This document shows, piece by piece, positions 9,638 to 24,054 of a stretch of DNA of 36,510 bases (positions are counted from its first letter, which is position 1; each line of letters opens with the position of its first letter). Made by a program: the position numbers and the translations under genes. The stretch is from Armatimonadia bacterium (GTDB lineage: Bacteria > Armatimonadota > Zipacnadia > Zipacnadales > UBA11051). The stretch spans positions 1 to 36,510 of the forward strand of contig JBDKRC010000204.1 of the NCBI GenBank assembly GCA_039683575.1, given 5' to 3'. Below the pieces are notes generated by a model, which was given only the letters and a program-made list of their open reading frames with translations, was not told the DNA's origin and did not search any database.

Positions 9638-11353
9638 CTACCGGGCCATCTCGCTCAGGTGTGACAGGGCGCGTTCTTCACTTTGCTGCATCTGGCGCGT
9701 CAGGTCGGCGGCTTCGGCCCAGGTGGCTTCTGGTGGCGGTTCGGCGCCGGTGGCTGGACGGGTAAGCGACAAAAGCGTGCGGCGGAGTTCCTGGCCGACG
9801 CGGGCGAGCTCGCCATAGGCCTCGGCGGCCTGGGCTGCATTGTTCTGGGCAAGGCTCGGCGCGGCGGCGGCGAGGCCGGTCAGGGCGCGGGCGGCGGCGC
9901 GGCGTTCGGCGAGAAGCTGCGGCAGGGCGCCGGTGGCCCACTGGCGCAGGACTGCACTGCGCTTGGAGGAGGGGTCGTCCATCCGCTCTATCTGCTCGGC
10001 CAGAACCTCATAGGCGTGCAGGCCCGTGGCCGCGCGACCGCCTTCGCGCTGATTCGCGACTTCCAGCGCCCGCCGGGCGGTGTTGCGCAGGACGGTCGCC
10101 GGAGCGGGCGTCTGCAGTCGCTGGCCGAGCGCAAGCTGGAAGTACGGGCCGGTGACGCAATCGGTGTGGCCGCTGGTCCCACGAGCCCAGCGGCTCATGA
10201 ACTGCTGCCGGGTGAGCGCCTCGGGGCTCTGGCGACCCGCGGAGAGCAGGTACACGCGCTCTTCGGCGGGTTTGTAGCCAACGACGAGCGCCCAGGCGCC
10301 ACCGCTGGACAGCGGGATCATCGCGGGGCGGCCCTGGCTGAGGGCCTGCACGAGGCTGGCAAAGCTTGCCTCAGCGGAGGGTGCGGACCAGACATTCACG
10401 CCAAAGCCGTACTGCTCGGCAGCGGCGGCGAGGACGTTGCGGCCCAGGTTCGGCACGCTCGCGCGGTCAGGGTCATAGGCGAAGTCGAAGGCCGCGCCAC
10501 AGACGGTCAAGAGTTCTTCGGGCGTGGCGCGCACGCCCTGCTGGGCGAGCAGGCTGCTCAGGCACGCGAAGGGCTTGAGGCGCAGGCCATTGACCGCAGG
10601 CGGGGCGGGTACGCCGCTGAGTACGCGGGCGGCCCGAACCTTGGCCAAAAGCTCCTGCTTCATCTGCTGGCCGCGCTGGCCGTAGTAGATCCACCCGATC
10701 GCGCGCTTGGCCTCGACGGCGCTGGGCGTCTGCGGGTACTTGCTGACGATCTGCTCGTAGAGCCTGACCGCCTGATCGCCCTGGTTGCCCTGCTTGTCGG
10801 CGATGCGGGCGCGAATGAGCATGGCGGCAGCGCAGGGCCGCATCTGCTCAGGGTGGGCCTGCACCAGCGCGCGGGCTTCCTGGTCAGCCTCCTTGAGCTT
10901 GCCACAGGCGAACAGGGTCCGCACGAGCAGCAGGTGCGCGGCGGTCAGCGTGCGGGGATCGTCCGCGAAGCGCTCGGTGATGACCCGGTAGGTGAAGCGC
11001 ACCCCGGCGGTGTCCTTGAGGTCCTGCCCCCTGATTTGCATGACATTCAGGAGCGCTTCATCGGCATAGGGCGAATTGGGATACTTGTCCGCCAGATACT
11101 CGTAGGTCTGGACAGCCTGAAGCGGGGCGTCGAACTCCTCGCGGTGCAGATAGGCGAGCTTGTAGAGGGCGTCATCGGCCAGAGCCGAGCGCGGCTGCTC
11201 GAGGGCGAGGCGCCGGTACTCGGTCGCGGCCATGGAGGCCTGCCCCTGCGAGAAGAGGGCCTCAGCCCGGCGGTAAAGGCGCTCGGCGCGGTTGGAGCAG
11301 CCGGATAGCAGCACTACCACGATGATGGCGAGAAGAGAACCTCGTCTGCTCAC
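9638..11353 (-). CDS. TPR lipoprotein (BamD/CpoB-like repeats) with C-terminal BtrH/C39 papain-like domain
   Basis: Lipobox LSGC; repeats such as YPNSPYADEAL and YPQTPSAVEA; C-terminal ALSQGRPAMI...WALVVGY. Confidence 0.8.
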   Translation of the reverse strand: MSRRGSLLAIIVVVLLSGCSNRAERLYRRAEALFSQGQASMAATEYRRLALEQPRSALADDALYKLAYLHREEFDAPLQAVQTYEYLADKYPNSPYADEALLNVMQIRGQDLKDTAGVRFTYRVITERFADDPRTLTAAHLLLVRTLFACGKLKEADQEARALVQAHPEQMRPCAAAMLIRARIADKQGNQGDQAVRLYEQIVSKYPQTPSAVEAKRAIGWIYYGQRGQQMKQELLAKVRAARVLSGVPAPPAVNGLRLKPFACLSSLLAQQGVRATPEELLTVCGAAFDFAYDPDRASVPNLGRNVLAAAAEQYGFGVNVWSAPSAEASFASLVQALSQGRPAMIPLSSGGAWALVVGYKPAEERVYLLSAGRQSPEALTRQQFMSRWARGTSGHTDCVTGPYFQLALGQRLQTPAPATVLRNTARRALEVANQREGGRAATGLHAYEVLAEQIERMDDPSSKRSAVLRQWATGALPQLLAERRAAARALTGLAAAAPSLAQNNAAQAAEAYGELARVGQELRRTLLSLTRPATGAEPPPEATWAEAADLTRQMQQSEERALSHLSEMAR

Positions 11354-12207
11354 AGAGCTGCCACCTCCTCGAGGGCCAGACGGGCTTGCAGCAGGTCGCG
11401 TCGCGAGAACTCGTCGCTCTGCTGGGCGATGTCCGACAGGTCCTCGACCAGGGCCTCCTGCTCAATGCGGGTGACCAGATAGGTGAGTGTTGGCGCCTGG
11501 GGGCGCGCGTTGGCAATTTCATCCAGGACGAGAGAAGCGCGCTGGAGTGTACGCGCCTGCCCCTGGTCGGCACCGTCGGGATCAGGCAATTCCCCCGCCT
11601 GGTCGCGCAGGCACTGGGCCAGCTCGTGCTTGATGATCCGGTCCTGCAGGCAGGCGAGCTGGACGTCGGTGGCCCCGCTGAGGGTGGCAAAACGCAGCCA
11701 GCCGAGCCCGCCAAGAGTCACCAGAACGGCGGCGGCGGCGGCAATCCACGTGCGGCGGCGGAAGGCCGTCCGTACGCGGTGGTTGTGGGCGATTTCGTCG
11801 GCATAGCGGCCGATCAGGTCCACGAGGGGCTGAAGCTGCTCCTCGGGGAGGCTCAAGAGCCCCTCCTCGGCTTGCTGCTGGGCGTTGCGGAGGTGGCGCC
11901 GGACGGTGGCGCGGTCGGCGTAGTCGGCCAACCGGGCTCCGAGCAGATCGAAGGCGCGGTGGCTGAGATGCCCGCCGACGTAGGGGCGGGTGAGCAGGGC
12001 TAGGAGGTCCTCCCAGGCGAGAATAAGCGCCGCCTGGGCGGAGGGCTCATCAGGCGCGACGAAGGTGGCCGCGACGTAGAGGCGGTCGACCAGGCGGTAG
12101 AGCAGGGTCGCCAGCGCCTCGCGCTCGCCACGGCGGCAGCGGTGGTACAGTGCGCGCTGGACCCGCGCACCGCTCTCTTCCGGGTTGTTAACGGTGTGTC
12201 TTGGCAC
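11350..12207 (-). CDS. Hypothetical membrane protein with N-terminal ECF sigma region-2-like segment
   Basis: LYHRCRRGEREALATLLYRLVDRLYVAATFV...SAQAALILAW; TM WIAAAAAVLVTLGGLGWL; start and stop overlap both neighbours. Confidence 0.7.
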   Translation of the reverse strand: MPRHTVNNPEESGARVQRALYHRCRRGEREALATLLYRLVDRLYVAATFVAPDEPSAQAALILAWEDLLALLTRPYVGGHLSHRAFDLLGARLADYADRATVRRHLRNAQQQAEEGLLSLPEEQLQPLVDLIGRYADEIAHNHRVRTAFRRRTWIAAAAAVLVTLGGLGWLRFATLSGATDVQLACLQDRIIKHELAQCLRDQAGELPDPDGADQGQARTLQRASLVLDEIANARPQAPTLTYLVTRIEQEALVEDLSDIAQQSDEFSRRDLLQARLALEEVAAL

Positions 12208-12848
12208 TACTTGCGCTTTTCCTTGAACTTGGCATCCGAGAGGCCGGTGTTGACGCGGACGTTGTTGAACTGCACCGCGATGGTACCGGGCTTATTCTTG
12301 GACCGATCTCGGGACGGTATGGTTGCAGTCAGGCGCTGGGGCATCCAGTACTTGCTTTGCAGCTTCTGGTAGGTCCAGGTAACTGCCATCTCCAGCCCCC
12401 GCGCGGAATGCGCTTCCATGCGTTCGACCGTCCACCTGTCTCCACGTACATACACCAGTACATAGTCACCGCTGCGCCTGGCGCCCTTTTCGAGGACCCT
12501 GAGGGTGTACTGCGGGGCGCCGTTGACCCTCTTGGTGCCGAGAATGGTGACGCTGGTGTCCCTGGTCATCTCGGTGCCCATCTTGCCCAGCATGAGCGCC
12601 TCTTTGGGGATCATGACGATGCCCTTGGAGTCGATGGCGACCTTGTCCGGACGTTTATAGTACACCTTTGCCGTGCGGCGCGGTATCTGCACGTCCGGCA
12701 TGTCCACGGTGACGACGACATCGGCGACGTAATCCTTGATCTCGGCGCGCAGGTCCATGGCCCGGCGGAGGATGTCCGGGCCGGTCTGGGCGGCGAGGAC
12801 CGGGGCGAGCGTGAACGTGACAAGTATGATGATTGCGAGGCGCTTCAT
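12207..12848 (-). CDS. LolA-like (outer-membrane lipoprotein-sorting fold) periplasmic protein
   Basis: Signal peptide; VYYKRPDK, YWMPQR, FNNVRVNTGLSDAKF C-terminus characteristic of the LolA-like fold. Confidence 0.8.
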   Translation of the reverse strand: MKRLAIIILVTFTLAPVLAAQTGPDILRRAMDLRAEIKDYVADVVVTVDMPDVQIPRRTAKVYYKRPDKVAIDSKGIVMIPKEALMLGKMGTEMTRDTSVTILGTKRVNGAPQYTLRVLEKGARRSGDYVLVYVRGDRWTVERMEAHSARGLEMAVTWTYQKLQSKYWMPQRLTATIPSRDRSKNKPGTIAVQFNNVRVNTGLSDAKFKEKRK

Positions 12849-12849
12849 G

Positions 12850-13695
12850 TCAGGACACGATGTCCTTTTGGCGGAAGATGATCAGGCCGAGCACGTACGG
12901 CACGAGGCAGTAACCTACTACACAGTATAGCGCCGGGAGGAAGTCTGCGAGTTCCAATTGCGCCTTGAAGGCGTACTTCCAGGCGTCGAGATAGTTGGTC
13001 AGCAGGTAAGGCTTGAGGCACTCGAAATACTCGAGGCTCTGGATGATACCGCTGATCGGGATGAAGGCCACGGCAGCCCCGGCGGCCACGAGCGGATTCT
13101 CGAAGATGACAGAGGCCAGCAGCGCCAGGGCGCCCATGCCGCACATCAGCAGGGCGGCGAGGCCATAGGCGAGTCCGAGCCGCTGCAGGGCCATGGCCTC
13201 GTCGAGTATGACCAACCCATGCTCGCTCTGGGACATGTCCACCAGGTCTCCGCCGCCGAAGAAGACATAACCGAGCAGAAGGGTGAACAGGCCCAGGAAG
13301 AAGGTGAGCAGGATCGCGTGGGTCCCGGCGGCGAGGCTCTTGGCGGTGTAGAGCGAGGAGCGTGAGAGCGGGCGGCAGAGCCAGGTGCGCAGGACGCCGG
13401 ACTTGCTTTCGGCGGCGATGAGCGAGCTGACGATCATGGCGATGAGCGCGGGGACGAGAACGATGAAGACGGGTTCCATGATGTGCCGCGCGACGGTCTG
13501 GGCGGTGACGAGCCGGCCGCCGACGACCATGTCACGGCCGAAGGAGTGCTTCAGGTGCTCTCCAAAGCCATAGCGCCACATGCCCCAGACCATGAGGCTG
13601 GAGACGATCGCAAGTATGGCATACGACACATAGGTGCCGCGCTGGCGGAAGATTTTGTTGAGTTCGAGCCGATAGCTCGTGAGGAGGCGGATCAT
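12850..13695 (-). CDS. ABC-2 type transporter permease
   Basis: ELNKIFRQR start, IAAESKSGVLRTWLCRPLSR..LYTAK, six TM segments, FRQKDIVS end. Confidence 0.92.
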   Translation of the reverse strand: MIRLLTSYRLELNKIFRQRGTYVSYAILAIVSSLMVWGMWRYGFGEHLKHSFGRDMVVGGRLVTAQTVARHIMEPVFIVLVPALIAMIVSSLIAAESKSGVLRTWLCRPLSRSSLYTAKSLAAGTHAILLTFFLGLFTLLLGYVFFGGGDLVDMSQSEHGLVILDEAMALQRLGLAYGLAALLMCGMGALALLASVIFENPLVAAGAAVAFIPISGIIQSLEYFECLKPYLLTNYLDAWKYAFKAQLELADFLPALYCVVGYCLVPYVLGLIIFRQKDIVS

Positions 13696-13714
13696 GGTTG
13701 GTGGTTCTGGTCTA

Positions 13715-13794
13715 CTGTAGGGCGGGGGCTCGTACCCCGCCGGCCGTTATCTATGACCACCCGAGCGGCGGGGTACGGAGCCCCCGCCCTACAG
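13715..13794. repeat. GTAG-type REPIN, family A copy 3 (no insert)
   Basis: ctgtagggcgggggctcgtaccccgccg-spacer-cggcggggtacggagcccccgccctacag. Confidence 0.92.
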
Positions 13795-13812
13795 CAACGG
13801 CAACGCCAAGGC

Positions 13813-14730
13813 CTACGACTCGGGCGGCTTCATCAGCTTGAGATACAGGTCCTCGAGGTCCGGGTTGTGCGGCATCAGGGCCGAGACGCGGAGACCGCAG
13901 GCCACCAGGGCCGCGTTGAGGTCCGCCGTCTTGTCCGGCGGCAGCGAGACCTGGAGAAGGTCTTCGTATGGTTCGGCGGATTCGACGTAGGGCAACTCGC
14001 TGGCGGCTGACAGGGCGTGGGGCAGGTCATCTACCTGCACCCGCACGAGGCTGTGATCGGTCTTTAGAAGCTCCTCCACGGGGCCGCCCGCGATCAGCTT
14101 GCCCTGCGAGATAACGCCGACCTGATCGCAGATTAGCTGGACCTCGTGGAGCAGGTGGCTGGAGAGGAAGACTGTCATCTGGCGCTCGTCGCGCAGGCGC
14201 AGGAGCAGGTCGCGGATCTCCACGAGGCCCTGTGGATCGAGGCCCTGGGCGGGCTCGTCCAGGATCAGCAGGCGCGGGCGCGGAAACAGGGCCTGGGCGA
14301 TGCCGAGGCGCTGCTTCATCCCGTGGGAGAAAGTGCGTACGCGGTCATTCTGGCGCTCGGCGAGGCCAACAAGCTGCAGGGCCTCCTCGAGCGGCTGGTC
14401 GTGCGGCAGGCCCGAAAGGCGGCCTAACATCAGGAGGTTCTGGCGGGCCGAGAGATAGTCCACGAAGGCCGGCCCCTCGACCAGCGCCCCGACCTCGCGG
14501 CGGGAGCGGGTGTCGTCCCAGCGCACCGGGCGGCCAAGCAGGGCGGAGGAGCCGCTGGTGGGCTTGATGAGGCCAAGCAGCATGCGGATTGTGGTGCTTT
14601 TGCCCGCGCCGTTGGGGCCAAGGAAGCCATAGATGCAGCCGGTGGGTACGCGCAGATCGAGGCCCGCGACGGCCTGGCGGCGGCCGTAGCGCTTGTGCAG
14701 GGCGCAGGTTTCGATGGCGTAGGTGGGCAT
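13813..14730 (-). CDS. ABC transporter ATP-binding protein (BcrA-like exporter subfamily)
   Basis: Walker A GPNGAGKST, signature FSHGMKQR, Walker B LLILDEP, SSH switch. Confidence 0.96.
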   Translation of the reverse strand: MPTYAIETCALHKRYGRRQAVAGLDLRVPTGCIYGFLGPNGAGKSTTIRMLLGLIKPTSGSSALLGRPVRWDDTRSRREVGALVEGPAFVDYLSARQNLLMLGRLSGLPHDQPLEEALQLVGLAERQNDRVRTFSHGMKQRLGIAQALFPRPRLLILDEPAQGLDPQGLVEIRDLLLRLRDERQMTVFLSSHLLHEVQLICDQVGVISQGKLIAGGPVEELLKTDHSLVRVQVDDLPHALSAASELPYVESAEPYEDLLQVSLPPDKTADLNAALVACGLRVSALMPHNPDLEDLYLKLMKPPES

Positions 14731-14743
14731 GATTTGGATGTTT

Positions 14744-14844
14744 GCTGTAGGGCGGGGGCTCGTACCCCGCCGCTCGGGTGGTCATGGATAAAGGCCGGCG
14801 GGGTACGAGCCCCCTGCGACGCGGACGTCGCTCCGCCCTACAGC
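14744..14844. repeat. GTAG-type REPIN, family A copy 4 (reverse orientation, with insert)
   Basis: gctgtagggcgggggctcgtaccccgccgctcgggtggtcatggataaaggccggcggggtacgagccccc[tgcgacgcggacgtcgctc]cgccctacagc. Confidence 0.92.
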
Positions 14845-14855
14845 CTTGAAGCAGC

Positions 14856-15686
14856 CTACAGGCTCGCGGCCATGGCTATGCAGGCGCGGTTCTGTAGCTC
14901 GCGCATCGGGTCCGCGCTGCCCTTGAAGCCATTCATCATGATAGAGAAACATAGAACCTGCCCGTTGCGGTCCACGTAACCCGAGAGCGTTGAGACGCCG
15001 GTTAGAAACCCGGTCTTGGCGCGTACGCAGCCTGCCGCGCAGGAGTCCTTCATCCGCGTGCGCAGGGTGCCATCCACGCCCGCAATGGGCAGGGAGTTCA
15101 CACAGGGCCCGGCGCAGTCGCTTTCGGTGCGCATGTACCGCAGCAACTCGACGAGGAACCGCGGGGTGAGGCGGTTTTGGCGCGAGAGACCGCTGCCGTC
15201 CACAAAGACGCAACCCTCCACCGGCAGGCCGACTTGCCGCCACGCGGAGGCCATCAGCTCCTGGTAGTCACTGGCCGCGTGCGCGTCGAGCAGCGCCTGC
15301 CGGAAGCCCTCGGCGAGGTAGTTGCTGCTGGGCTTGTTCATGTCACTGAGCAGGCGGCAGGTCGGCTGGGGCTGCGCGCAGTGCTTGCCGAACCACGCGG
15401 CATGGGCGTCGGGCGGGAATTCGTGCTCGTCGCGCCAGGTGCGCAGAGCCAGGGCGCCGGTGGGAAGCTTCATGTTGGAGGCGGGCATGAAGGGCCGATC
15501 CGGTGTACGCTGGTACAGGACCGTCCCACTAAGGTCTTGCACCAAAACGCCTACAGCGACGCCATTCAGGCGCGGGCTGTCGAAGATGGGGTCCAGGTCA
15601 GCTTGCAGGCTCGCGGCCTGAGAAAGGGCCGTTACGAGCAAGCAGGACGCAAGCAGGAATGGACGCGGCGGGCGGAGGTGACGCAT
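14856..15686 (-). CDS. dacB: D-alanyl-D-alanine carboxypeptidase/endopeptidase, peptidase S13 (PBP4/DacB-like), minimal form
   Basis: PASNMK (SxxK), SSNYLAE (SxN), DGSGLSR, SLPIAGVDGTL, AKTG; signal peptide. Confidence 0.88.
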   Translation of the reverse strand: MRHLRPPRPFLLASCLLVTALSQAASLQADLDPIFDSPRLNGVAVGVLVQDLSGTVLYQRTPDRPFMPASNMKLPTGALALRTWRDEHEFPPDAHAAWFGKHCAQPQPTCRLLSDMNKPSSNYLAEGFRQALLDAHAASDYQELMASAWRQVGLPVEGCVFVDGSGLSRQNRLTPRFLVELLRYMRTESDCAGPCVNSLPIAGVDGTLRTRMKDSCAAGCVRAKTGFLTGVSTLSGYVDRNGQVLCFSIMMNGFKGSADPMRELQNRACIAMAASL

Positions 15687-15693
15687 TGGCGAT

Positions 15694-15699
15694 ATTATA
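15694..15699 (-). promoter_or_regulatory. -10 box TATAAT 7 nt before dacB ATG (probable leaderless transcript)
   Basis: Minus strand cagggTATAATatcgccaATG; no Shine-Dalgarno visible. Confidence 0.65.
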
Positions 15700-15756
15700 C
15701 CCTGCTGGCGGGAACGGGGGAAGGGGAGGGGTGCCGGGAACCGGGCACCAGTTGGT

Positions 15757-15843
15757 CAAAACGGGGACGGAGCCTTCGCGCCGATCAGAGTGTTGAGAGT
15801 TCCAGCGCACAAATCACGGCGCGAAAGCTCCGTCCCCGTTTTG
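15757..15843. repeat. Inverted repeat, family E (27-bp arms)
   Basis: caaaacggggacggagccttcgcgccg (15757-15783) and cggcgcgaaagctccgtccccgttttg (15817-15843), one mismatch. Confidence 0.85.
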
Positions 15844-15937
15844 GGCGACAGGCGACATCGCCTTCGACGCAGCCCGAACCTTCCCTGCCCGAGGCCGTCA
15901 ACACTCCTGCAAACAAACCATTCCCAAGAGGTGGAAC

Positions 15938-16681
15938 ATGCGGACACGGATATTGGTAATCGCGGGACTATTGGCGCTGACGACGGTAGGGGCGTGGGCG
16001 CAGGGGGGGAAGATACGCGTGCTTGGGCAGGGCGAGGTCTTCACCGCCCCTGACATTGCGGAGGCGTCGTTTTCGGTACGGGCGGAGGACAAGCAGCTTC
16101 CGGCGGCGCGGGAAAAGGCCGCGGCGCAGATGACGCGCGTGCTCGACGCGCTCAAGGCGCTGAAACTGCCGGGGCTGACGCTGAGCACCACTTCGATCAG
16201 TGTGACGCCGCTCGTAAAGCCGCAGGAGGGGGGATACGTAGGGCCTGATGCCGAGGCGCGACGGGAGGTCGTGGGCTACCAGGTGACGAGCACGGTCAAC
16301 GCGCGGCTCGAGGGCGAGCCGGCGGCCCTGTCGCAGGGCATGTCGAAGATCATGGACACAGCAGTCGCCAACGGCGCGACGACGTTCTTCGGGCCGAACA
16401 TCTACCGGCGCAACCTCGACGAGCCGAACCGTCAGGCGCTGGCCGTGGCGACGAAGGACGCGGTAGCGAAGGCCCAGGCACTGGCAGCGGCGGCGGGAGT
16501 GACCATCAAGGGGTATAGCTACGTGGGAATGTACCCTGAGGACCAGCCGAACCAGGGGCCGATGCCGATGTTCGAAGCGCGGACCATGGCCATGGGCGGC
16601 GGGGGAGCGCCGACGCCGACGCCGGTGGAGGTGCGGGATATCCAGGTAACGGCGCAGGTCTGGGTGACGGCGGTGTACTGA
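15938..16681 (+). CDS. SIMPL domain protein (DUF541, YggE/BP26-like)
   Basis: Signal peptide; IRVLGQGEVFTAPDIA, GYQVTSTV, AVAKAQALAAAAGV, VTAQVWVTAVY. Confidence 0.9.
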   Translation: MRTRILVIAGLLALTTVGAWAQGGKIRVLGQGEVFTAPDIAEASFSVRAEDKQLPAAREKAAAQMTRVLDALKALKLPGLTLSTTSISVTPLVKPQEGGYVGPDAEARREVVGYQVTSTVNARLEGEPAALSQGMSKIMDTAVANGATTFFGPNIYRRNLDEPNRQALAVATKDAVAKAQALAAAAGVTIKGYSYVGMYPEDQPNQGPMPMFEARTMAMGGGGAPTPTPVEVRDIQVTAQVWVTAVY

Positions 16682-16726
16682 GCACAAGCGAGCGGAAGGG
16701 AGATCGGCGTCAACACATGACCTGTC

Positions 16727-17407
16727 TCACCATGTCACGGGCTTGATGATCGTGCCGCGACTATCAATGAGCTGATCCTCAAAGACCGCCGCGCGCAGCA
16801 CCTTTGCGGAGAGATCGAAGGCGCCTGTTGCTGCCTGGTCGAGACGACGGGTCCGGGCTGTGGGATTGGGCCTGCACAGGTATACGGGCTTGCCTACGTC
16901 TTTTGTGACAAGATTGATGGCTCCAGCCAAATCCTCGTCGGTGGTTATTACGAGGGCCACGTCAAAGGTCTTTGTATCGTCTGTCTGGTTGGCATCGTGG
17001 ACCAGGTGGGCCGCCAGATTCACATCGGAGCCTTTCTCCTCGCACCTGAGTACCTGCGCCATTTTGGGCTTCTGCCCACAGACATCGACCCCGGCAGCCT
17101 CCTGAGCCTCCAGCGCATAGACGGAGGAGCATAGCGGCATGTACTTTTCCCAGCGGGTGAAATAGCCCTCAATTCGCTCAACACAGCCGAGCGTCTTCAG
17201 GGCTCGCCAATAGGTGCGCTGGTTTCTACGCTGGTCGGGTGCGCCGGCCCGCTGCTCAACCATGGCGGTGAAGTACTTCACTCGTTCGACTGTGTCGTTC
17301 GGGCGCAGTGACTGGCAGAGATCGAGAAGGTTGACCCACTTGCAGGAGAGTCGCTTACACGCGCCATGGTACAGGTTGAACCCATCTATGTACGCCCAAC
17401 AGCGCAT
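16727..17407 (-). CDS. NYN domain (LabA/DUF88, PIN-like) ribonuclease
   Basis: YIDGFNLY, VKYFTA, EEKGSDVNLA, TTDEDL acidic active-site motifs; visibly more A/T-rich than flanking genes. Confidence 0.92.
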   Translation of the reverse strand: MRCWAYIDGFNLYHGACKRLSCKWVNLLDLCQSLRPNDTVERVKYFTAMVEQRAGAPDQRRNQRTYWRALKTLGCVERIEGYFTRWEKYMPLCSSVYALEAQEAAGVDVCGQKPKMAQVLRCEEKGSDVNLAAHLVHDANQTDDTKTFDVALVITTDEDLAGAINLVTKDVGKPVYLCRPNPTARTRRLDQAATGAFDLSAKVLRAAVFEDQLIDSRGTIIKPVTW

Positions 17408-17420
17408 ATGACTATCCCCC

Positions 17421-17456
17421 AGAAAAAGTGCAAGCCACCCTTGAGAGGTGGCCTGC
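17421..17456 (-). terminator. Intrinsic terminator just upstream of the NYN start codon
   Basis: Minus strand gcaggccacc-tctcaag-ggtggcttgc-ac-tttttct; the G-U wobble pairs only on the minus strand. Confidence 0.75.
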
Positions 17457-17489
17457 GGCTTACGCCTAATGCGTAAGCTGGTTTGCTTT
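17421..17489 (-). ncRNA. Candidate ~70-nt structured RNA/leader upstream of the NYN gene
   Basis: Lies between a consensus promoter and a terminator; hairpin gcttacgc-attag-gcgtaagc (17458-17478) plus terminator hairpin. Start inferred from -10 spacing. Confidence 0.55.
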
Positions 17490-17495
17490 ACGGTG

Positions 17496-17523
17496 ATTAT
17501 ACCCTGGCATCACCCCATGTCAA
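17496..17523 (-). promoter_or_regulatory. Consensus sigma70 promoter TTGACA-N16-TATAAT
   Basis: Minus strand TTGACA tggggtgatgccaggg TATAAT. Confidence 0.88.
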
Positions 17524-17567
17524 CCCGCAAATCGCCTCCAATTATCCATGCGCCACCATGCTCGGGG

Positions 17568-18380
17568 TCACGGCGCTAGCGCCTTGAGCGCGCCTGCGCA
17601 GAACCGGCTGCAGCGGCGGACCCAGTCGGCGCGGTCCTGGAAGACCGAACCGTAGAGGTATTCGGCCCAGAGCGAGGCCGCGAAGTCCTTGCCGTCAAAG
17701 TAGGGCACAGACAGGTTGAAGCAGCGATGCAGCGCCTGCTTCATCAGGCTGCGGCAGCCGTGCTTGAGCGAGAGGAGCGTCGACAACTGGCCGGAGAGGT
17801 GCTTCCAGTCGTTGATGAGCTTCGCCGGAGGCTCGGGCACCGGCTGAAGGGACTGAAGGCGGGCCAGATCTTCGCGAAGCGAGCGGGTCAGCATGGGCAG
17901 ATAGCTCACCGGATCGTAGACGCGCACGGCCGGGCGGAGGTCGGGGCCCCAGAGGGGGAGGCTGTTTTCCACGAAGTCGAAAGCGTAGATCCACAGATAG
18001 CGGTCGCGGGAGAGGTATTCGCGTAGGAAGCCGGCGGGATCGGCCCAGTCGGGTTGGCGGCAGACCGTCTGCCTGTCGGCGAAGTGGCAGTCAACGAGGA
18101 ACGGCTTTTGGCGGCCGGTGCTCATCCCAAGGCGCAGGAGGGGCTCGCCAAAGTGCTGGATGACCGCGCGGAACTCCGGCAGAGAGGCGACCTCGCTGCC
18201 CTTCTCCCCCAGGCCATGCACGAAGAGCAGGTCTACATCGCTGCCACCCTCATTGAAATCATCGCGGGACAGCGATCCGACCAGAGCGACGCTGTGCAGG
18301 CCCGCGCGCTCGGCCAGAGAGGTGTCGAGGCTCGCGGCGCTGGCGTGGAGATTCTCGATCAGGCGAGTACTGAGGCCCAC
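17568..18380 (-). CDS. Nucleotidyltransferase domain protein (Pol beta superfamily)
   Basis: VGSLSRDDF...SDVDLLFV (GS...DxD); GTG 18380 preceded by GGAGG; helical C-terminal domain. Confidence 0.82.
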   Translation of the reverse strand: MGLSTRLIENLHASAASLDTSLAERAGLHSVALVGSLSRDDFNEGGSDVDLLFVHGLGEKGSEVASLPEFRAVIQHFGEPLLRLGMSTGRQKPFLVDCHFADRQTVCRQPDWADPAGFLREYLSRDRYLWIYAFDFVENSLPLWGPDLRPAVRVYDPVSYLPMLTRSLREDLARLQSLQPVPEPPAKLINDWKHLSGQLSTLLSLKHGCRSLMKQALHRCFNLSVPYFDGKDFAASLWAEYLYGSVFQDRADWVRRCSRFCAGALKALAP

Positions 18381-18473
18381 AGTGTGACCTCCGAAGGCAG
18401 ATAGTGGTTTATTCGCGTTGGGCACGGGCGGGACCTTCACGGCTGGAAGTGCTTCCCATCGGCAGGCCTTCGC

Positions 18474-18863
18474 ATGCCCATCGTCGAAACCTCCACCGCC
18501 ATGACCGACGATCAGCCCACCTACACCACTCTCGACGGCTCGCTGATCCGCGAGATCATCCGCCCGGAGCGCCAGGGCAGCCGCCACCTCAGCCTCGCCG
18601 AGGCAACCATCGCTCCCGGACAGTCCACCATTCGCCACCGCCACCATCAGTCCGAGGAGATATACTACGTTCTGTCTGGCGCGGGCACCATTGAGGTCGC
18701 GGCGCGCCTGCAGCGCGTGCAGGCGGGTGACGCTGTGCTGATCCCGCCGGGGGCCGAGCATCGCGCCACCTGCATGGGCGAGACGCCGCTGCGCATCCTC
18801 TGCGCCTGCAGTCCTCCCTACCAGCATAGTGACACTGAGCTAACGGAGGGGGAACTGGCGTAG
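18474..18863 (+). CDS. Cupin domain protein
   Basis: HRHHQSEEIYYVLSGAG and GDAVLIPPGAEH cupin motifs; start 18474 or 18501. Confidence 0.92.
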   Translation: MPIVETSTAMTDDQPTYTTLDGSLIREIIRPERQGSRHLSLAEATIAPGQSTIRHRHHQSEEIYYVLSGAGTIEVAARLQRVQAGDAVLIPPGAEHRATCMGETPLRILCACSPPYQHSDTELTEGELA

Positions 18864-18913
18864 GCGGTACCCACGCCCTGTCTCCTTCACACTACCCCAT
18901 ACCGAGGCTAACG

Positions 18914-19987
18914 ATGACTTCCCGAGAACGCGTTCTGGCCGCCTTCGCCCATACCGAACCTGATCGAGTGCCGGTCAACTATCTTGGCAACCCCGGCATC
19001 ACCGCCCGCTTGGTGAAGCACTTCGGGCTGGCGGAGGGGGACTATGGGGGGCTGCTGCAGGCGCTGCAGGTCGACTTCCGCTCGGTCGGCGCGCCCTATG
19101 TGGGGCCGCAACTGCACGAGCAACTGCCCGATCGCAGCGTGGATATCTGGGGCATCCACCGCCGCTACATCGAGCATCCGAGCGGGGGTTACTGGGATTA
19201 CTGCGATTTCCCGCTGCGCGAGGCGACGGTCGAGCAGGTGGCCGACTGGCCCCTGCCCTCACCGGACGACTTCGACGTGTCAGGCGTGGCGGAAGCCTGC
19301 AAGCGCTATGAGCCATATGCCCTCAACGGCTCGGGTGGCTTTGGCGACATCATCAACGGCAACGGGATGCTCCGGGGCATGGAGCAGACGCTGGTGGACC
19401 TTATCACCGACGACCCGGCAGGGCTGCTGCTGGCAGACCGGAGGATGGCGATCCAGCTTGAGGTGACGGAGCGGATTCTTGAAGCGGCAAAGGGGAGGGT
19501 GGACTTCGTGTGGCTGGGCGAGGACCTGGGGACGCAGATTGCCCCGATCATCAGCCCGGCAATCTTCCGCAAGCACATACGCCCGCGCTTTCAGCCGGTT
19601 TGCGACCTCGCTCGCGCGCACGGCGCCTACGTGATGATGCACTGCTGCGGGTCGAGCAGTTGGGCCTTTGAGGACTTCATCGAGATGGGCATCCAGGTCG
19701 TGGACACCCTGCAACCGGAGGCGAAGGACATGGGGCCCCGGTACCTGAAGACCACCTTCGGCGGCCGTCTGGCCTTCCATGGGGCCATTTCGACCGCCGG
19801 GCCGCTGGCTTATGGCAGCGTGGACGACGTCGTCGCCAACGTGCGCGAGACGCTCGAGATCATGATGCCCGGCGGAGGGTACTGTCTGGCGCCGACGCAC
19901 CAGATCCAGGACAACACGCCGACTGGGAACGTGCTGGCGATGTACGAGACGGCGCGGACTGTCGGCACCTACAGCAACAAGGTCTAG
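18914..19987 (+). CDS. Uroporphyrinogen decarboxylase (UroD/MetE-like) family protein
   Basis: MTSRERVLAAFAHTEPDRVP, LRGMEQ, EDLGTQ, MHCCG, GGYCLAPTHQIQ; the non-HemE subfamily expanded in carbohydrate degraders. Confidence 0.92.
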   Translation: MTSRERVLAAFAHTEPDRVPVNYLGNPGITARLVKHFGLAEGDYGGLLQALQVDFRSVGAPYVGPQLHEQLPDRSVDIWGIHRRYIEHPSGGYWDYCDFPLREATVEQVADWPLPSPDDFDVSGVAEACKRYEPYALNGSGGFGDIINGNGMLRGMEQTLVDLITDDPAGLLLADRRMAIQLEVTERILEAAKGRVDFVWLGEDLGTQIAPIISPAIFRKHIRPRFQPVCDLARAHGAYVMMHCCGSSSWAFEDFIEMGIQVVDTLQPEAKDMGPRYLKTTFGGRLAFHGAISTAGPLAYGSVDDVVANVRETLEIMMPGGGYCLAPTHQIQDNTPTGNVLAMYETARTVGTYSNKV

Positions 19988-19997
19988 GAAGGCAACA

Positions 19998-21773
19998 ATG
20001 CGTAGGCTCTGCCTGCTGGCGCTAATAGGAGTTGGTATCATGGCGACCTCCGCCGCCTCGGCGGCTAACAAGCGTGTTGTGACGCTGGCCTCGGTTTGTC
20101 TGCTCGATGGCAAGCAGTACCAGACACGGGAGTATGTAGTCTCGGCACTGAAGACGGTCCCGGCCAAGACCGACCTCGTGGCGCTGCCCCACATGCCCTT
20201 CCTGACCTATCGCGGACGGGCCACCGCGCGGGATCTGGCGCCGTTTGTGGAACTGGCGCGGCAGCGGAAGACCTATGTGGCGCTCTCGCTGACGGAGGAA
20301 GCGGCGGGGCAGACGTTCTACACCGCACTGCTGCTGGACCGGACCGGGAAGATCGTGGGGCGCTATCGCAAGACCCACAAGATGGCCGACGACCCGCAGG
20401 AACTGGCACTGGGTGATGACCTGCCGGTGTTTGAGACCGACTTCGGCAAAGTCGGCCTGACCATCACGACCGATTTCTACTTCTTTGAGCCGTACAATGC
20501 GCTGGCGATGAAGGGCGCGGAGGTGATCGTCTGGCACGACTATCCGGAGCGGGTGAGGGACTATGGCGGGCACGAGCCGCTGCTCATGGCGCGGTGCCTG
20601 GATGCCCATGCGCACATGGTAGCGGCGACCTATGCCGACCCGCGCACCTACATCACCAATAGCTGGGACATGGGCATGCCAGGGGCCGCGTGGGGGCGGA
20701 GCATGGTGCTGAACCGCGTGGGGACCCCGGTGGCGGACACGGGGTATGAGGACGGCGTGGCCGTGGCGCGCGTGGACCTGGACAAGCGGAAGCTGGAGGT
20801 CTACCAGCCCGCTTGTGAAAACGAGAATATCTTCTTCGTGAACAACTACGGGGACCGTAAGGCCTTTGCTCCGGTAGCCGGGCCCTGGACGCCGCCGAAG
20901 CTGCCGAAATATGCCAAGCGCACGGCGCGGGTGGCCGTGGCGTGGCTGCCACGGCGTGATAGCTGGGTGCGGGGGAAGATGCCGGAGAGGATGCTGAAGC
21001 TGATCGAGCGGGCAGGAGAGATCAAGCCCGACCTGGTGCTGCTATCCGAGATGAGCACCAGCTACGAGGATGCGACCACACTGGACGCGGCGGCGAAGGT
21101 GGGGGAACTGGCCCGCAAGCTCGGAAGCTATGTGGCCATCGGGGGCCTCGGCGACAAGGATCAGGTCAGCTACATGCGGGTATGGGACCGGCAGGGCAAA
21201 GAGATCTACGCCCAGGCATTGTACTGGCCCAAGGGTTACCCGGAGATCAGGGTCTTCGACACCGACTTCGGGCGGGTGGGCTCGCATGAGTGCGGAGACC
21301 TGTACCTCCCGGAGTTCGACCGCACCTTGGGGCTGCTGGGGGCGGAGCTGATCATCGATGCCTCGCAAATGTGGGGGGCGAGTGGGCGGACGAATGAGAC
21401 GCTGCTGCGGGCGCGGGCGATTGACAACGGCGTGTGGCTGGCCTGCGCGCACTGGCCCACCTCCGACCCCTCGCTACGGAGCCTGATCGTTGACCCCTAC
21501 GGCCAGATCATGGCCTCCTCGACCTTCGAGGATGAGGGCATCATCTACCGGGACCTTGATTTTGACCAAGAGCGGGTGTACTACGCGGGGCAGAAGGCGG
21601 AGCAAGCCACGCCGGGGACGGCAGGCATCCCGGCGTACTTCAGCGACAACATGCCTGACCAGAAGTGGGGCTGGCGGGAGATGATGCTCAAGGCACGGCG
21701 GCCGGAGTTGTATGGAATACTGCCGACATGTAATGAGGTGACGGCGCGGTATCGGGGCGAGAAGTGCCCGTAG
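19998..21773 (+). CDS. Secreted tandem carbon-nitrogen hydrolase (nitrilase superfamily) protein
   Basis: Signal peptide; two CN-hydrolase domains (GRYRKTH...PVFETDFGKVG; VFDTDFGRVG..CGD, RARAIDN, SLIVDPYG, RRPELY). Confidence 0.88.
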   Translation: MRRLCLLALIGVGIMATSAASAANKRVVTLASVCLLDGKQYQTREYVVSALKTVPAKTDLVALPHMPFLTYRGRATARDLAPFVELARQRKTYVALSLTEEAAGQTFYTALLLDRTGKIVGRYRKTHKMADDPQELALGDDLPVFETDFGKVGLTITTDFYFFEPYNALAMKGAEVIVWHDYPERVRDYGGHEPLLMARCLDAHAHMVAATYADPRTYITNSWDMGMPGAAWGRSMVLNRVGTPVADTGYEDGVAVARVDLDKRKLEVYQPACENENIFFVNNYGDRKAFAPVAGPWTPPKLPKYAKRTARVAVAWLPRRDSWVRGKMPERMLKLIERAGEIKPDLVLLSEMSTSYEDATTLDAAAKVGELARKLGSYVAIGGLGDKDQVSYMRVWDRQGKEIYAQALYWPKGYPEIRVFDTDFGRVGSHECGDLYLPEFDRTLGLLGAELIIDASQMWGASGRTNETLLRARAIDNGVWLACAHWPTSDPSLRSLIVDPYGQIMASSTFEDEGIIYRDLDFDQERVYYAGQKAEQATPGTAGIPAYFSDNMPDQKWGWREMMLKARRPELYGILPTCNEVTARYRGEKCP

Positions 21774-21979
21774 GTAGCGATCGAAGCGCTGGATATTTGC
21801 TCACAATAGTCGGGAAGAATGCAGGACAGAGGCGCATACATAACGAAGTGAGATCAATCCGGGGGGGCCAGCGGTATAGCCTCACGACCCCTCCCTGATC
21901 CCAAAAGACCGCACAACATAGCTCTTGATCACGGGCTCTCATTGAGTCACGTTGATATCTGCCACGGAGGGGTGCGCCA

Positions 21980-22171
21980 ATGTCCAAGAAGCGTATTGAC
22001 GTCAACGTCACATCACCGGGGATGTTCCAGAGCGAGTATTACGCAGTTGCCAGGGATGAGGGCGGTAACGAAGTCGCATATGCCTATGGCCGCGACAGGC
22101 GGGAAGCAACGGTCAAAGTAGTGCAGAAGGTGCGAGAACGCTACGGCAGTGACGCAGAAATCCTCTACTAA
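21980..22171 (+). CDS. Small hypothetical protein (63 aa)
   Basis: GGAGGG RBS; first of three co-oriented lower-GC ORFs. Confidence 0.6.
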   Translation: MSKKRIDVNVTSPGMFQSEYYAVARDEGGNEVAYAYGRDRREATVKVVQKVRERYGSDAEILY

Positions 22172-22210
22172 AGAGGAGTTGTACCATATCGCATGGGAGG
22201 AAGATACGAC

Positions 22211-22441
22211 ATGCAGTACAAGACCGAGTTTCTGCCGCGGGAGTTCACGGGTAGTAGGGATGTTATGCAGAACGCAGCGGCATACATTGACGGGCGTCTG
22301 GCAGAGTGGGCGAGCAAAGGCTGGGAACTGGACCAGATCGGGCAGATATCGATCAGCGAGAAACCTGGATGTCTAGCCAGTCTGCTTGGCGCTAAGGCCA
22401 TGGAGACAGAATTGAACTGCCTCATCTTCAGAAAAGCGTAG
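22211..22441 (+). CDS. Small hypothetical protein (DUF4177-like)
   Basis: GGGAGG RBS; MQYK...LAEWASKGWEL...PGCLASLLG...LIFRK pattern. Confidence 0.65.
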   Translation: MQYKTEFLPREFTGSRDVMQNAAAYIDGRLAEWASKGWELDQIGQISISEKPGCLASLLGAKAMETELNCLIFRKA

Positions 22442-22513
22442 GCGATTCGAGCTGGTGGCCAGAGTTGCGTCCGGCACTCTGGCCACATATCCGAACTCCG
22501 GGAGGAGAGTGCC

Positions 22514-22951
22514 ATGAGTTCCTTTGCCGACCTCTTTTCTGGGCTGAATTTCGAGAGAACCATCCGGCGCTTCTGCAGTGACCAGAGCTGGGTCATAGCC
22601 GAAGTCAACGACCGCAAGGCTGTACTGCGGTTCAACATGGAGTCGGGGCGCAAACAGACACTTTTCATACTGAAATACGAGTCTACTCTTGAATTCTCAG
22701 TGCCCAGCGGAGCGCAGTTTGACAGCGAAGACGAGATACCGGACTTTCTGTCCACGCTCCTACTGAAGCGCAGTGCACAACGCAAGATCGGGTTCTGGTG
22801 CATCGAGAAGATTGGCTCCCGCCACGTCTACTCGTGTATGCACAACGCAGAGTTCCAGCTAATCGACAGCGTGTTCTTTGCGAAGGTTGTTCGTGCCCTG
22901 ATTGGTGAGTGCGACGAGTTCGAGGGTGAACTGCTCAGACTATTGGCCTAA
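22514..22951 (+). CDS. Hypothetical protein, YbjN/CesT (type III chaperone)-like fold
   Basis: GGAGGAG RBS; 145 aa acidic protein with LLLKRSAQRKIGFW and C-terminal helix ECDEFEGEL. Confidence 0.65.
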   Translation: MSSFADLFSGLNFERTIRRFCSDQSWVIAEVNDRKAVLRFNMESGRKQTLFILKYESTLEFSVPSGAQFDSEDEIPDFLSTLLLKRSAQRKIGFWCIEKIGSRHVYSCMHNAEFQLIDSVFFAKVVRALIGECDEFEGELLRLLA

Positions 22952-23010
22952 GGCGACAGCGCGGTACCGCGGGGAGAAGTGCCCGTAGACGACAGTTTGC
23001 ACTCAGAACG

Positions 23011-23039
23011 AGAGGGGCAGGCACTCAGCCTGCCCCTCT
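23011..23039. terminator. 12-bp hairpin, probable terminator
   Basis: agaggggcaggc-actca-gcctgcccctct. Confidence 0.65.
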
Positions 23040-23059
23040 TCGATTCCCGGGGTGTGGGA

Positions 23060-23155
23060 CTATCGACCCCACCAGCACTTCGAGACCGCGTCGTTGCCGG
23101 TGTCGCCCTCGAGCAGGCTGCGCTTGACCCGCTTGACGTGGCCGTCGGCCACGTA
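23060..23155 (-). pseudogene. 3' remnant of an H-X9-DG/DUF1559-type gene
   Basis: Reads YVADGHVKRVKRSLLEGDTGNDAVSKCWWGR*, matching the FADGHAK C-terminal motif of the neighbouring intact gene; nothing homologous upstream. Confidence 0.55.
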
Positions 23156-23294
23156 TGTCTCATGTTTGCCACAAGTATGCAGGAATCTTAACCATGCTAC
23201 GGAACCTTGGCCTGCTGTCACGGGTCCTTCACAGAAGGATACCTGCGTAAGCAGAACTTCGTAGAGAATCGTTACATCGGAGGAGGCCATCTAG

Positions 23295-23933
23295 TTGCGC
23301 AAAGGTTTTACATTGATTGAGCTATTGGTTGTAATCGCTATCATCGCGATTCTGGCGGCAATCCTGTTCCCGGTTTTCGCCAAGGCACGTGAGAAGGCCC
23401 GGCAGACGAGTTGTCTGTCGAACCTCAAGCAGATGGGTACCGCGCTTTTGATGTATGCGCAGGACTATGACGAAGTGTATATGCCCAGCGGCTACGTGAT
23501 CCCGAGCCTGGGCACCGACCCCAACGTGAACTGGTGGCGCTTTTTGATCCAGCCGTACATCAAGAACTGGCAGGTCTTCCTGTGCCCGTCCTCGGCGTAC
23601 ACGGGCGTCCCGTCGAACCCGGCGGCGCAGCTTACCAACGCCTACGGCTACACGAGCACGCTCAACTGCCGCGCGCAGGGCACGATCACGAAGCCGGCGG
23701 AGTTCATTGCGATGGGCGACTCGGTACACTGGATCGGCGACTGCTACGGGTTGTGGACGTACGCGTTCGCCGCGCCGAGCGGCTGGCCGGGCAACTTCTC
23801 GACCAACCCGGCGAGCCGCACCGAGTCCAACACGCGGCACAACTTCGGGTCCAACCTGACGTTTGCCGACGGGCACGCGAAGTGGTACCAGACGAATGCC
23901 ATTTTGGGGATGACAACGGCGCTGACGCCGTAA
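23295..23933 (+). CDS. Prepilin-type N-terminal cleavage/methylation domain protein (DUF1559, H-X9-DG)
   Basis: [62 protein letters not shown] start with GGAGGAGG. Confidence 0.96.
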
Positions 23934-23959
23934 CGGCACGGTAAGTCCGAGGGAATGAG

Positions 23960-23993
23960 AAGGGCCAGACCTTGTTTGAGGTCTGGCCCTTTT
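23960..23993 (+). terminator. Intrinsic terminator
   Basis: aagggccagacc-ttgtttga-ggtctggccctttt. Confidence 0.8.
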
Positions 23994-24015
23994 GCGTGTT
24001 GGCGATTGTTACGGC

Positions 24016-24043
24016 GCGGCGGGGTACGAGCCCCCGCCCTACA
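24016..24043. repeat. Solo arm of family A REP
   Basis: gcggcggggtacgagcccccgccctaca, identical to the right arm at 9565-9592. Confidence 0.9.
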
Positions 24044-24054
24044 ACAGATGACTG

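Follow-up and report, generated by a model that had tools for sequence, protein, structure and literature searches.

The window, by which we mean the entire 36,510-nucleotide stretch of DNA that was analyzed, carries a locus that we propose to be a two-component module, in which a small RNA gene is paired with a gene for a NYN-fold ribonuclease. The RNA gene would consist of a near-consensus promoter, a two-hairpin RNA of ~65 nucleotides and an intrinsic terminator. From comparative sequence analysis, we assign a probability of about one half to the reading that this RNA is a putative protein-binding partner or antitoxin that restrains the NYN ribonuclease.

A promoter, a two-hairpin RNA and a terminator precede the nuclease gene

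All components of the window locus reside on the minus strand. A sigma-70-type promoter, TTGACA-N16-TATAAT (17496..17523), is positioned to drive the small RNA and, by read-through, the NYN gene as well. Its -35 element (TTGACA, 17523-17518) and its -10 element (TATAAT, 17501-17496), both read directly from the sequence and separated by 16 nucleotides, together match the consensus at 12 of 12 positions. This is the sole 12/12 site in the 15 kb scanned (10000-25000), a region in which four promoter-like sites with at least 9/12 matches were found versus 2.4 expected. Downstream of the promoter, covariance model R1, which was built from homologous loci, matches positions 17421..17488 over its full length (1-68; 35.9 bits, E 1.3e-8), with the window RNA being a single unit by this match. 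Hairpin 1 (17458..17478) was both read and folded as an 8-bp stem with a 5-nucleotide loop, and its stem is kept among homologues via compensatory changes. When the plus strand is read instead, hairpin 1 scores as terminator-like too.

Hairpin 2 and its U tract constitute an intrinsic terminator (17421..17456), with the stem spanning 17456-17430 and the tail extending to 17421. The hairpin comprises 11 pairs (7 of them G-C), a loop of five nucleotides and the tail ACTTTTTCTG, and is followed by ACUUUUUCU, the last base of which is 17421. It is classed as terminator-like on the minus strand, where its one G-U can pair, as it cannot on the other strand. The window therefore has a Rho-independent terminator located between the RNA and the nuclease gene, ending 13 nucleotides before the start codon of the latter. 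A Shine-Dalgarno-like GGGGGA (17415..17420, read directly) lies seven nucleotides 5′ of the ATG at 17407, which begins the gene for a 226-amino-acid NYN/PIN-like ribonuclease (16727..17407) of the PADLOC HEC-09 type. The 88-nucleotide leader has a predicted folding energy of -33.9 kcal/mol (z = -3.63), and none of 200 shuffled sequences was as stable.

Most of this anatomy had been proposed by the sequence-only reading, which described a perfect and unusual promoter, an 8-bp hairpin, a terminator hairpin with a U tract before the NYN start codon, a G-U in that terminator functioning only on the transcribed strand, and a nuclease gene more A/T-rich than its neighbors. Each of these observations held upon re-examination, the last as evident by a GC content of 0.58-0.60 over positions 16800-17599 versus 0.64-0.68 for the flanks. 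The same reading saw neither tandem repeats nor a pseudoknot, and indeed no tandem repeats were found in positions 17380-17600 and no pseudoknot is predicted for the window RNA.

Two metatranscriptome runs from one study are represented by assembled contigs only, from which absence, transcript ends and levels are not readable. These contigs overlap the NYN coding region in part, at 16691-16923, 17170-17346, 16918-17138 and 17216-17412. The interval 17420-17560 carries no contig, and the contigs are uninformative on the small RNA.

The structure of the RNA is conserved through compensatory change

Eighty homologous loci were collected from public genomes by an alignment-based scan, whereas a single-protein query gave none. 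Among the 67 loci with enough upstream sequence, 39 carry a promoter with at least 10/12 matches within 200 nucleotides upstream, a level of matching that only 37 of 1911 control windows drawn from these loci attain. Spacing between the -10 element and the start codon clusters at 76-104 nucleotides across the homologous loci, and a paralogue encoded elsewhere in the genome of the window is organized alike (TTGACA-N16-TATACT followed by an 85-nucleotide leader). When aligned, the leaders reveal a two-hairpin motif, in which hairpin 1 has a run of C nucleotides on the 5′ side of its base and is usually capped by a UNCG-type loop, just 1-2 nucleotides join it to hairpin 2, and hairpin 2 exhibits a conserved base with a bulged U before the U tract.

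RNAalifold predicts 18 base pairs, and double substitutions are present in all 18. Using a seed alignment (A3) of 38 sequences with a hand-set structure of 20 pairs, 90.8% of the cells are paired versus 74.8% in shuffles, and 19 of the 20 pairs exhibit changes on both sides; none of 500 shuffles reaches any of these measures, and sliding the register yields at most 50% pairing. A similar result was obtained for 46 matches outside the seed (92.7% paired versus 76.4% shuffled, double changes in 18 of 20 pairs, 0/500 shuffles), with an alignment that was fitted to R1 and therefore somewhat favors the structure. Helix 2 is paired in 95-99% of cases across homologues. At pair 16-29, U-G occurs in 21 of 38 rows, and many such G-U pairs function on the transcribed strand only. 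In the clade that includes the window, the sequence of hairpin 1 has been almost wholly replaced while its stem has been kept. Variation in the RNA is limited to compensating stem positions and loops, such that almost no variable single-stranded segment exists.

The sequence-only reading had proposed that conservation among NYN homologues, covariation and a search of Rfam serve as checks on the leader, and all three favor its interpretation, which is thereby supported in part. No match was found in Rfam 15 either for the window leader (16000-18500, E <= 10), the abiF motif included, or for 10 homologous loci (E <= 1). Likewise, the main texts of the papers searched contain no description of this RNA as a NYN-associated RNA or antitoxin. 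A PNAS 2025 paper that contains the term ‘NYN’ was dismissed because the term denotes a codon pattern there.

RNA and nuclease gene are linked from both sides

Starting from the protein, a full-length R1 match is found within ~100 nucleotides of the NYN gene in 80 of 82 sources. Of the two exceptions, one (L005) has a weak match (E 0.0019, filters off), and the other (L082) has its NYN start only 48 nucleotides from the contig end. The loci that carry both components span at least 15 phylum-level lineages, candidate-phyla-radiation bacteria included. A survey of 151 genomes of the phylum yielded 20 strong NYN genes, and the RNA is directly upstream of every one of them, as established by a filtered search for 13, by the window itself, and with filters off for the remaining six (one of which is weak, E 8e-4).

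Starting from the RNA, the 6.2-Mb genome of the window yields two R1 matches among the 150 of ~4300 first-look candidates that were scored, each located upstream of a NYN paralogue (41% identity between the two proteins). Among the best 15 RNA-first matches, 12 have an intact NYN gene 10-30 nucleotides downstream, one precedes a decayed NYN fragment, and two are orphans, both of the same genus, with no NYN gene within 1.5 kb. A further orphan RNA adjoins an IS630-type transposase gene. Weaker RNA matches that lack a NYN gene may be chance matches to hairpin-terminator sequences. Orphan RNAs thus occur, whereas no NYN gene lacking the RNA was seen in this clade, an asymmetry of the kind that an antitoxin and its toxin should leave. 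Farther out in the NYN family, homologues encoded on Rhizobium and Mycolicibacterium plasmids lack the RNA, and an ORF that belongs to no known family abuts them upstream.

The RNA can be encoded as a separate gene

In 69 of the 82 sources, the window included, the RNA is situated between the promoter and the NYN start. Two other arrangements were also found. At eight Acidobacteriaceae-type loci, the RNA is upstream of NYN on the opposite strand and thus divergent. At three metagenome-derived loci it is encoded just past the NYN stop codon and points back toward the gene, and this convergent layout recurs in the Mycobacterium phage prophiGD43A-1 (E 2.5e-18), a prophage, and on a Paenarthrobacter plasmid. 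A promoter scan covered the 12 minus-strand copies from metagenome-derived loci. For all 12, the best promoter-like site is positioned 2-19 nucleotides before model position 1, with 11/12 matches for six sites, 10/12 for one, 9/12 for two and 8/12 for three. No consistent gene was found downstream of the divergent RNA at the three loci examined, where the RNA is followed either by the 3′ end of a gene that converges on it or by short ORFs that differ between loci.

On a quick maximum-likelihood tree of NYN proteins (IQ-TREE), the divergent class forms one clade (support 98), whereas the convergent class falls in an unresolved part of a tree in which phyla are intermixed. Two whole RNA units occur in tandem at three loci, and units flank NYN on both sides at one locus. 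Because the RNA is divergent at eight loci and convergent at five, with promoter-like sites of its own at the copies scanned, we judge from its genomic placement that it is a separable sRNA gene and not merely a leader. The divergent, convergent and tandem arrangements cannot be accounted for by an attenuator that functions exclusively in cis. At L061, a tRNA-like stretch beside the RNA was considered and rejected when ARAGORN gave no confirmation. A tRNA is present at L107, ~1 kb from the RNA.

The module is carried on mobile DNA

A tblastn search locates NYN homologues on 172 plasmid records, including 35 from Escherichia and 32 from Klebsiella, and many of these plasmids are only 3.5-5.7 kb in length. 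R1 matches are present directly upstream of NYN on E. coli plasmids of 3461 bp (NZ_CP091696.1) and 4600 bp (NZ_CP145651.1), and also on Phaeobacter, Acetobacter and Leptospira plasmids. The 4600-bp E. coli plasmid (L110) carries 3.5 copies of a 33-nucleotide unit (88% match), each unit composed of a homologue of hairpin 1 and an A-rich linker, followed by a terminator and then NYN. On ColE1-type plasmids of Klebsiella, the leader is longer and contains internal repeats as well as a terminator. Given the plasmid carriage, the intermixing of phyla in the NYN tree and the dip in GC content over the window gene, the NYN-RNA module is taken to be horizontally mobile.

An all-against-all BLAST of the flanking ORFs of 82 loci identified no protein family common to more than five of them. 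Since no flanking family is conserved, the nucleotidyltransferase-domain ORF upstream of the window locus, which had been considered as a partner in the module, was rejected and is regarded as a neighbor. Other genes near the window locus include those for SIMPL and cupin proteins, among others. No defense families were recognized among these neighbors, save for generic ABC-ATPase similarity, and neither Hma (helicase-methylase-ATPase) nor another recognizable defense system was found around the window gene. A search of relatives for synteny that might define insertion boundaries matched only the NYN gene (65-67% identity); the flanks yielded two short, weak matches plus one on a different contig, and hence no usable synteny.

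The protein is a NYN-fold nuclease of the HEC-09 type

The sequence-only reading had called the protein a NYN nuclease with intact acidic motifs. With respect to family models, this assignment is only partly sustained, in that the match of the window protein to Pfam NYN (PF01936; E 0.0049, 17.8 bits) falls below the 24.2 cut-off, and NCBIfam gives no match to the window protein. The PADLOC model for HEC-09 (PDLC04163), by comparison, gives a match at E 6.2e-34 (115.4 bits). An AlphaFold2 model computed with 32 homologues has a pLDDT of 95.6, and Foldseek places VPA0982 (2qip) and the MARF1 NYN domains from mouse and human (5yaa, 6fdl) at the top of its PDB matches, with E values against NYN structures of 2.9e-7 to 4e-4, a TM-score to target of ~0.7 and 9-12% identity. 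Because the Pfam match is weak, the NYN assignment rests on PADLOC HEC-09 and the fold. The acidic motifs are intact as claimed: D8, N11, E124, K125, D128, D157 and D159 are invariant among 32 aligned homologues. An insertion distinguishes the window protein from the NYN-fold proteins of known structure or activity named here, as does a conserved C-terminal extension with an invariant final Trp. At least 1238 homologues were found at E <= 0.001 among the candidates scored, and PF01936 is present in most of those listed. The further claim that the nuclease is not a classic type III toxin is also upheld, as Pfam and the fold search give NYN only.

HEC-09 is reported to have a NYN domain similar to that of MARF1 with conserved aspartates, and was proposed as a defense candidate on account of its embedding in Hma systems; in the only published test of this family, it gave no protection in E. 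coli against the phages tried (bioRxiv 10.1101/2024.01.29.577857). A CRISPR-associated NYN protein is reported to be a Mn-dependent, sequence-nonspecific ssRNA nuclease that trims crRNA intermediates (bioRxiv 10.1101/2024.04.08.588522).

A proposed function for the RNA and its alternatives

In the mechanism that we favor, the terminator of the RNA would have to be read through for any NYN mRNA to be made in the window. With the RNA upstream and a terminator following it, the RNA is expected to be plentiful and the nuclease scarce, with the terminator maintaining the surplus of RNA. The RNA would act through the protein, binding NYN and keeping it inactive or sequestered, in a manner likened to an RNA antitoxin of type III toxin-antitoxin and abortive-infection systems, or to the AbiF partner RCd22. 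Once RNA synthesis stopped or the RNA was destroyed, for example upon phage infection or plasmid loss, the nuclease would be set free. If the CRISPR-associated NYN protein, reported to be a nonspecific nuclease of single-stranded RNA, is a guide, then a structured RNA is plausible as a ligand that is not a substrate, and an almost fully double-stranded RNA could occupy NYN while remaining uncut. That a short RNA is transcribed as a discrete species, that it binds and inhibits NYN, that NYN is toxic and that the pair serves in defense are all elements that we infer. A strong and portable promoter, a compact and very stable RNA, a terminator before the nuclease gene at most loci, obligate linkage in the absence of a protein partner, orphan RNAs but no orphan nucleases in this clade, arrays in one lineage and mobility all fit an RNA that acts on NYN, most simply as an antitoxin-like inhibitor.

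Several other explanations need to be weighed against this one. The RNA might be a purely cis-acting leader with no function in trans, which would limit NYN expression either by attenuating transcription or through autoregulation from the 5′ end of the mRNA. NYN itself might then cleave or bind the leader, in the way known for RNase III and RNase E and the leaders of their genes. The common arrangement, in which the terminator must be read through to reach NYN (69/82 sources), is as expected for such a leader. However, the RNA is fully conserved when it is divergent (eight loci) or convergent (five loci) and therefore outside the NYN 5′ UTR; hairpin 1, the conserved C-run and the sequences at the stem base are dispensable for termination; and orphan copies persist without NYN. 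We consider a leader of this kind unlikely, and the free-standing RNA genes together with the ToxI-like tandem array argue for a trans-acting RNA partner rather than a simple attenuator. That partner could have a positive role, serving an RNP nuclease as its scaffold or as the RNA that guides it or gives it specificity, or being an sRNA that NYN matures. Strict two-way linkage and free-standing RNA genes are compatible with any obligate RNA-protein partnership, so that the linkage data agree no less well with an RNA that activates or guides NYN, and the reported trimming of crRNA intermediates by the CRISPR-associated NYN (bioRxiv 10.1101/2024.04.08.588522) offers a parallel. We nevertheless regard a subunit or substrate role as rather doubtful, given that the RNA has almost no variable single-stranded segment to serve as a guide, that a strong promoter, terminator and read-through layout plus ToxI-like repeats are hallmarks of antitoxin RNAs, and that orphan RNAs would be useless as subunits. 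It is improbable, in particular, that the RNA is an obligate subunit of NYN, although this would make the module a new mobile RNP nuclease distributed among at least 15 phyla, with the RNA providing structure-specific target recognition or turning the enzyme on upon infection and the terminator setting the stoichiometry of the subunits.

Base pairing with the mRNA offers another route to control, whereby an antisense RNA of the type I kind would pair with the translation-initiation region of NYN, for example through its C-run and a G-rich Shine-Dalgarno sequence, and block translation. The RNA does carry a conserved C-run toward its 5′ side, and several loci, the window included, have a G-rich Shine-Dalgarno sequence. 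However, duplexes between the RNA and its cognate initiation region are predicted to be no more stable than non-cognate duplexes (-0.545 versus -0.537 kcal/mol per nucleotide, Wilcoxon p 0.99), the cognate region has a median rank of 16.5 of 38 and performs worse than coding controls from the same locus, and the C-run is mostly paired within hairpin 1, all of which renders this mechanism very improbable. The least credible option is that the hairpins function as DNA, whether as a recombination site, the end of a mobile element, a replication signal or a mere bidirectional terminator for neighboring genes. A terminator-like hairpin 1 on the plus strand and the horizontal mobility of the module are compatible with such a role, but numerous G-U pairs can form on the transcribed strand alone (e.g. 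U-G in 21/38 rows at pair 16-29), a near-consensus promoter precedes the RNA on its own strand with short and constant spacing whichever the orientation class, and the two copies in the window's genome (from 150 of ~4300 candidates scored) are both at NYN genes.

If the RNA does restrain the nuclease, then NYN would bring to four the toxin folds of RNA-antitoxin (type III-like) systems, and with at least 15 phylum-level lineages this would be by far the most widely distributed such system, extending from candidate-phyla-radiation bacteria to small enterobacterial plasmids and a mycobacterial prophage. Restraint by RNA would also explain how a stand-alone NYN ribonuclease is tolerated without a protein partner. 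HEC-09 would gain its missing second component, which may bear on the negative defense assay. The RNA motif is new to Rfam 15 and to the literature searched, and the natural copies on E. coli plasmids of 3.5-4.6 kb make the module easy to test.

Comparison with known systems

The closest parallels in layout are the type III systems (ToxIN, CptIN and TenpIN), which likewise present a promoter, a non-coding RNA, a Rho-independent terminator and an endoribonuclease made by read-through, and which are also carried on plasmids and phage-related DNA. The promoter in type III systems is constitutive. ToxI RNA is described as a series of tandem repeats (PMC3401426), and the E. coli plasmid with its 3.5 tandem 33-nucleotide units resembles this organization. 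In contrast, the window and most other loci have a single two-hairpin unit and no repeat array, no pseudoknot is predicted for the NYN-linked RNA, and the RNA gene can be divergent or convergent relative to its partner. The nuclease, moreover, is NYN/PIN-like in fold and belongs to neither the ToxN, the CptN nor the TenpN family. Because the toxin family differs and the window lacks repeats, the module is outside the three known type III families.

The window protein belongs to the same family as PADLOC HEC-09, but unlike the HEC-09 candidates it is not embedded in a recognizable defense system. The terms ‘non-coding’ and ‘ncRNA’ are absent from the main text of the HEC-09 report (bioRxiv 10.1101/2024.01.29.577857). 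Other NYN-fold ribonucleases (MARF1, VPA0982 and the CRISPR-associated NYN) share the fold, but none of these has been reported with a dedicated small RNA.

Structured 5′ leaders that mediate autoregulation are known for the ribonuclease genes rnc and rne, and the commonest arrangement of the NYN-linked RNA, a structured leader before an RNase gene, is similar. To our knowledge, leaders of the rnc/rne type are always part of the mRNA, whereas the NYN-linked RNA is also found as a separate gene on the other strand.

A conserved structured RNA encoded beside an RNA-targeting protein, with no ToxI-type array, is likewise the arrangement of AbiF (Abi_2) and RCd22. [quoted passage not shown] The AbiF protein has a HEPN-type Abi_2 fold rather than NYN, and the two RNAs are unrelated, as evident by the lack of abiF motif matches in the window and 10 other loci. 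By analogy, AbiF with RCd22 is a direct precedent, outside the classical type III families, for the kind of RNA-protein partnership that we propose for the NYN module.

Genomic setting of the module

The small RNA (17421-17488, minus strand) that accompanies the NYN/PIN-like ribonuclease gene (16727-17407, minus) may have termination activity beyond its own strand. Hairpin 1 (17458-17478) followed by GTTTGCTTTA, when read on the plus strand (17456-17480), also yields a terminator-like score, and therefore the two hairpins together (hairpin 2 with its U tract, 17421-17456, being the terminator) could stop transcription from both directions.

A 419-codon ORF carrying a nucleotidyltransferase domain (17568-18827, minus; PF01909, E 2.4e-4) stops 45 nt short of the -35 box of the RNA. 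Its true start probably lies further downstream, because a cupin gene on the opposite strand (18474-18863) overlaps roughly the initial 120 codons of the ORF. This ORF is not conserved next to NYN genes elsewhere. A separate region of the window (21600-23000), in which GC content drops to 0.54-0.58 versus about 0.65 in the rest of the profiled stretch, may be another foreign segment.

Variation among homologous loci

At locus L098 (G127:C10, about 1565-1700), the sequence after a promoter-bearing RNA copy encodes just a short N-terminal remnant of NYN (YIDTFNLYNG...), and the rest of the gene has been lost; this locus is a decayed module in which the RNA is retained. In-frame stop codons, one TGA and one TAG, interrupt the NYN homologues G062:C197:6154-6795 and G115:C138:415-1011, and the RNA is still present upstream of the G062 copy (L119, 417-487). 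At L107 (1501-1581, minus) the RNA copy is an orphan and its hairpin 2 is longer; it neighbours an IS630-type (DDE_3) transposase gene (1812-2825, minus), and there is no NYN gene within 1.5 kb.

The RNA is absent from two loci (L115, 1000-1416; L116, 986-1498) on plasmids of Mycolicibacterium and Rhizobium. Their NYN homologues are distant ones, and each is abutted by an upstream ORF without a Pfam family. Some other distant plasmid hits (H52, H68, H79 and H82) have an Xre/MbcA/ParS antitoxin domain annotated under the NYN match. A protein partner may take the place of the RNA at these distant plasmid homologues.

In Klebsiella ColE1-type plasmids (L129-L131), the NYN gene is 28% identical, and the leader that precedes it, about 330 nt upstream, is longer (~230 nt); it contains two direct repeats internally as well as a strong terminator. 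This leader gives no match to R1, the covariance model of the two-hairpin RNA, and could represent another RNA of this type. On an E. coli plasmid (NZ_CP145651.1; L110, 1081-1193), 3.5 copies of a 33-nt unit, each comprising a hairpin-1 homologue and an A-rich linker, precede a terminator and then the NYN gene. This array, a feature of a relative of the window module, resembles that of ToxI, the repeat RNA antitoxin of the type III ToxIN system.
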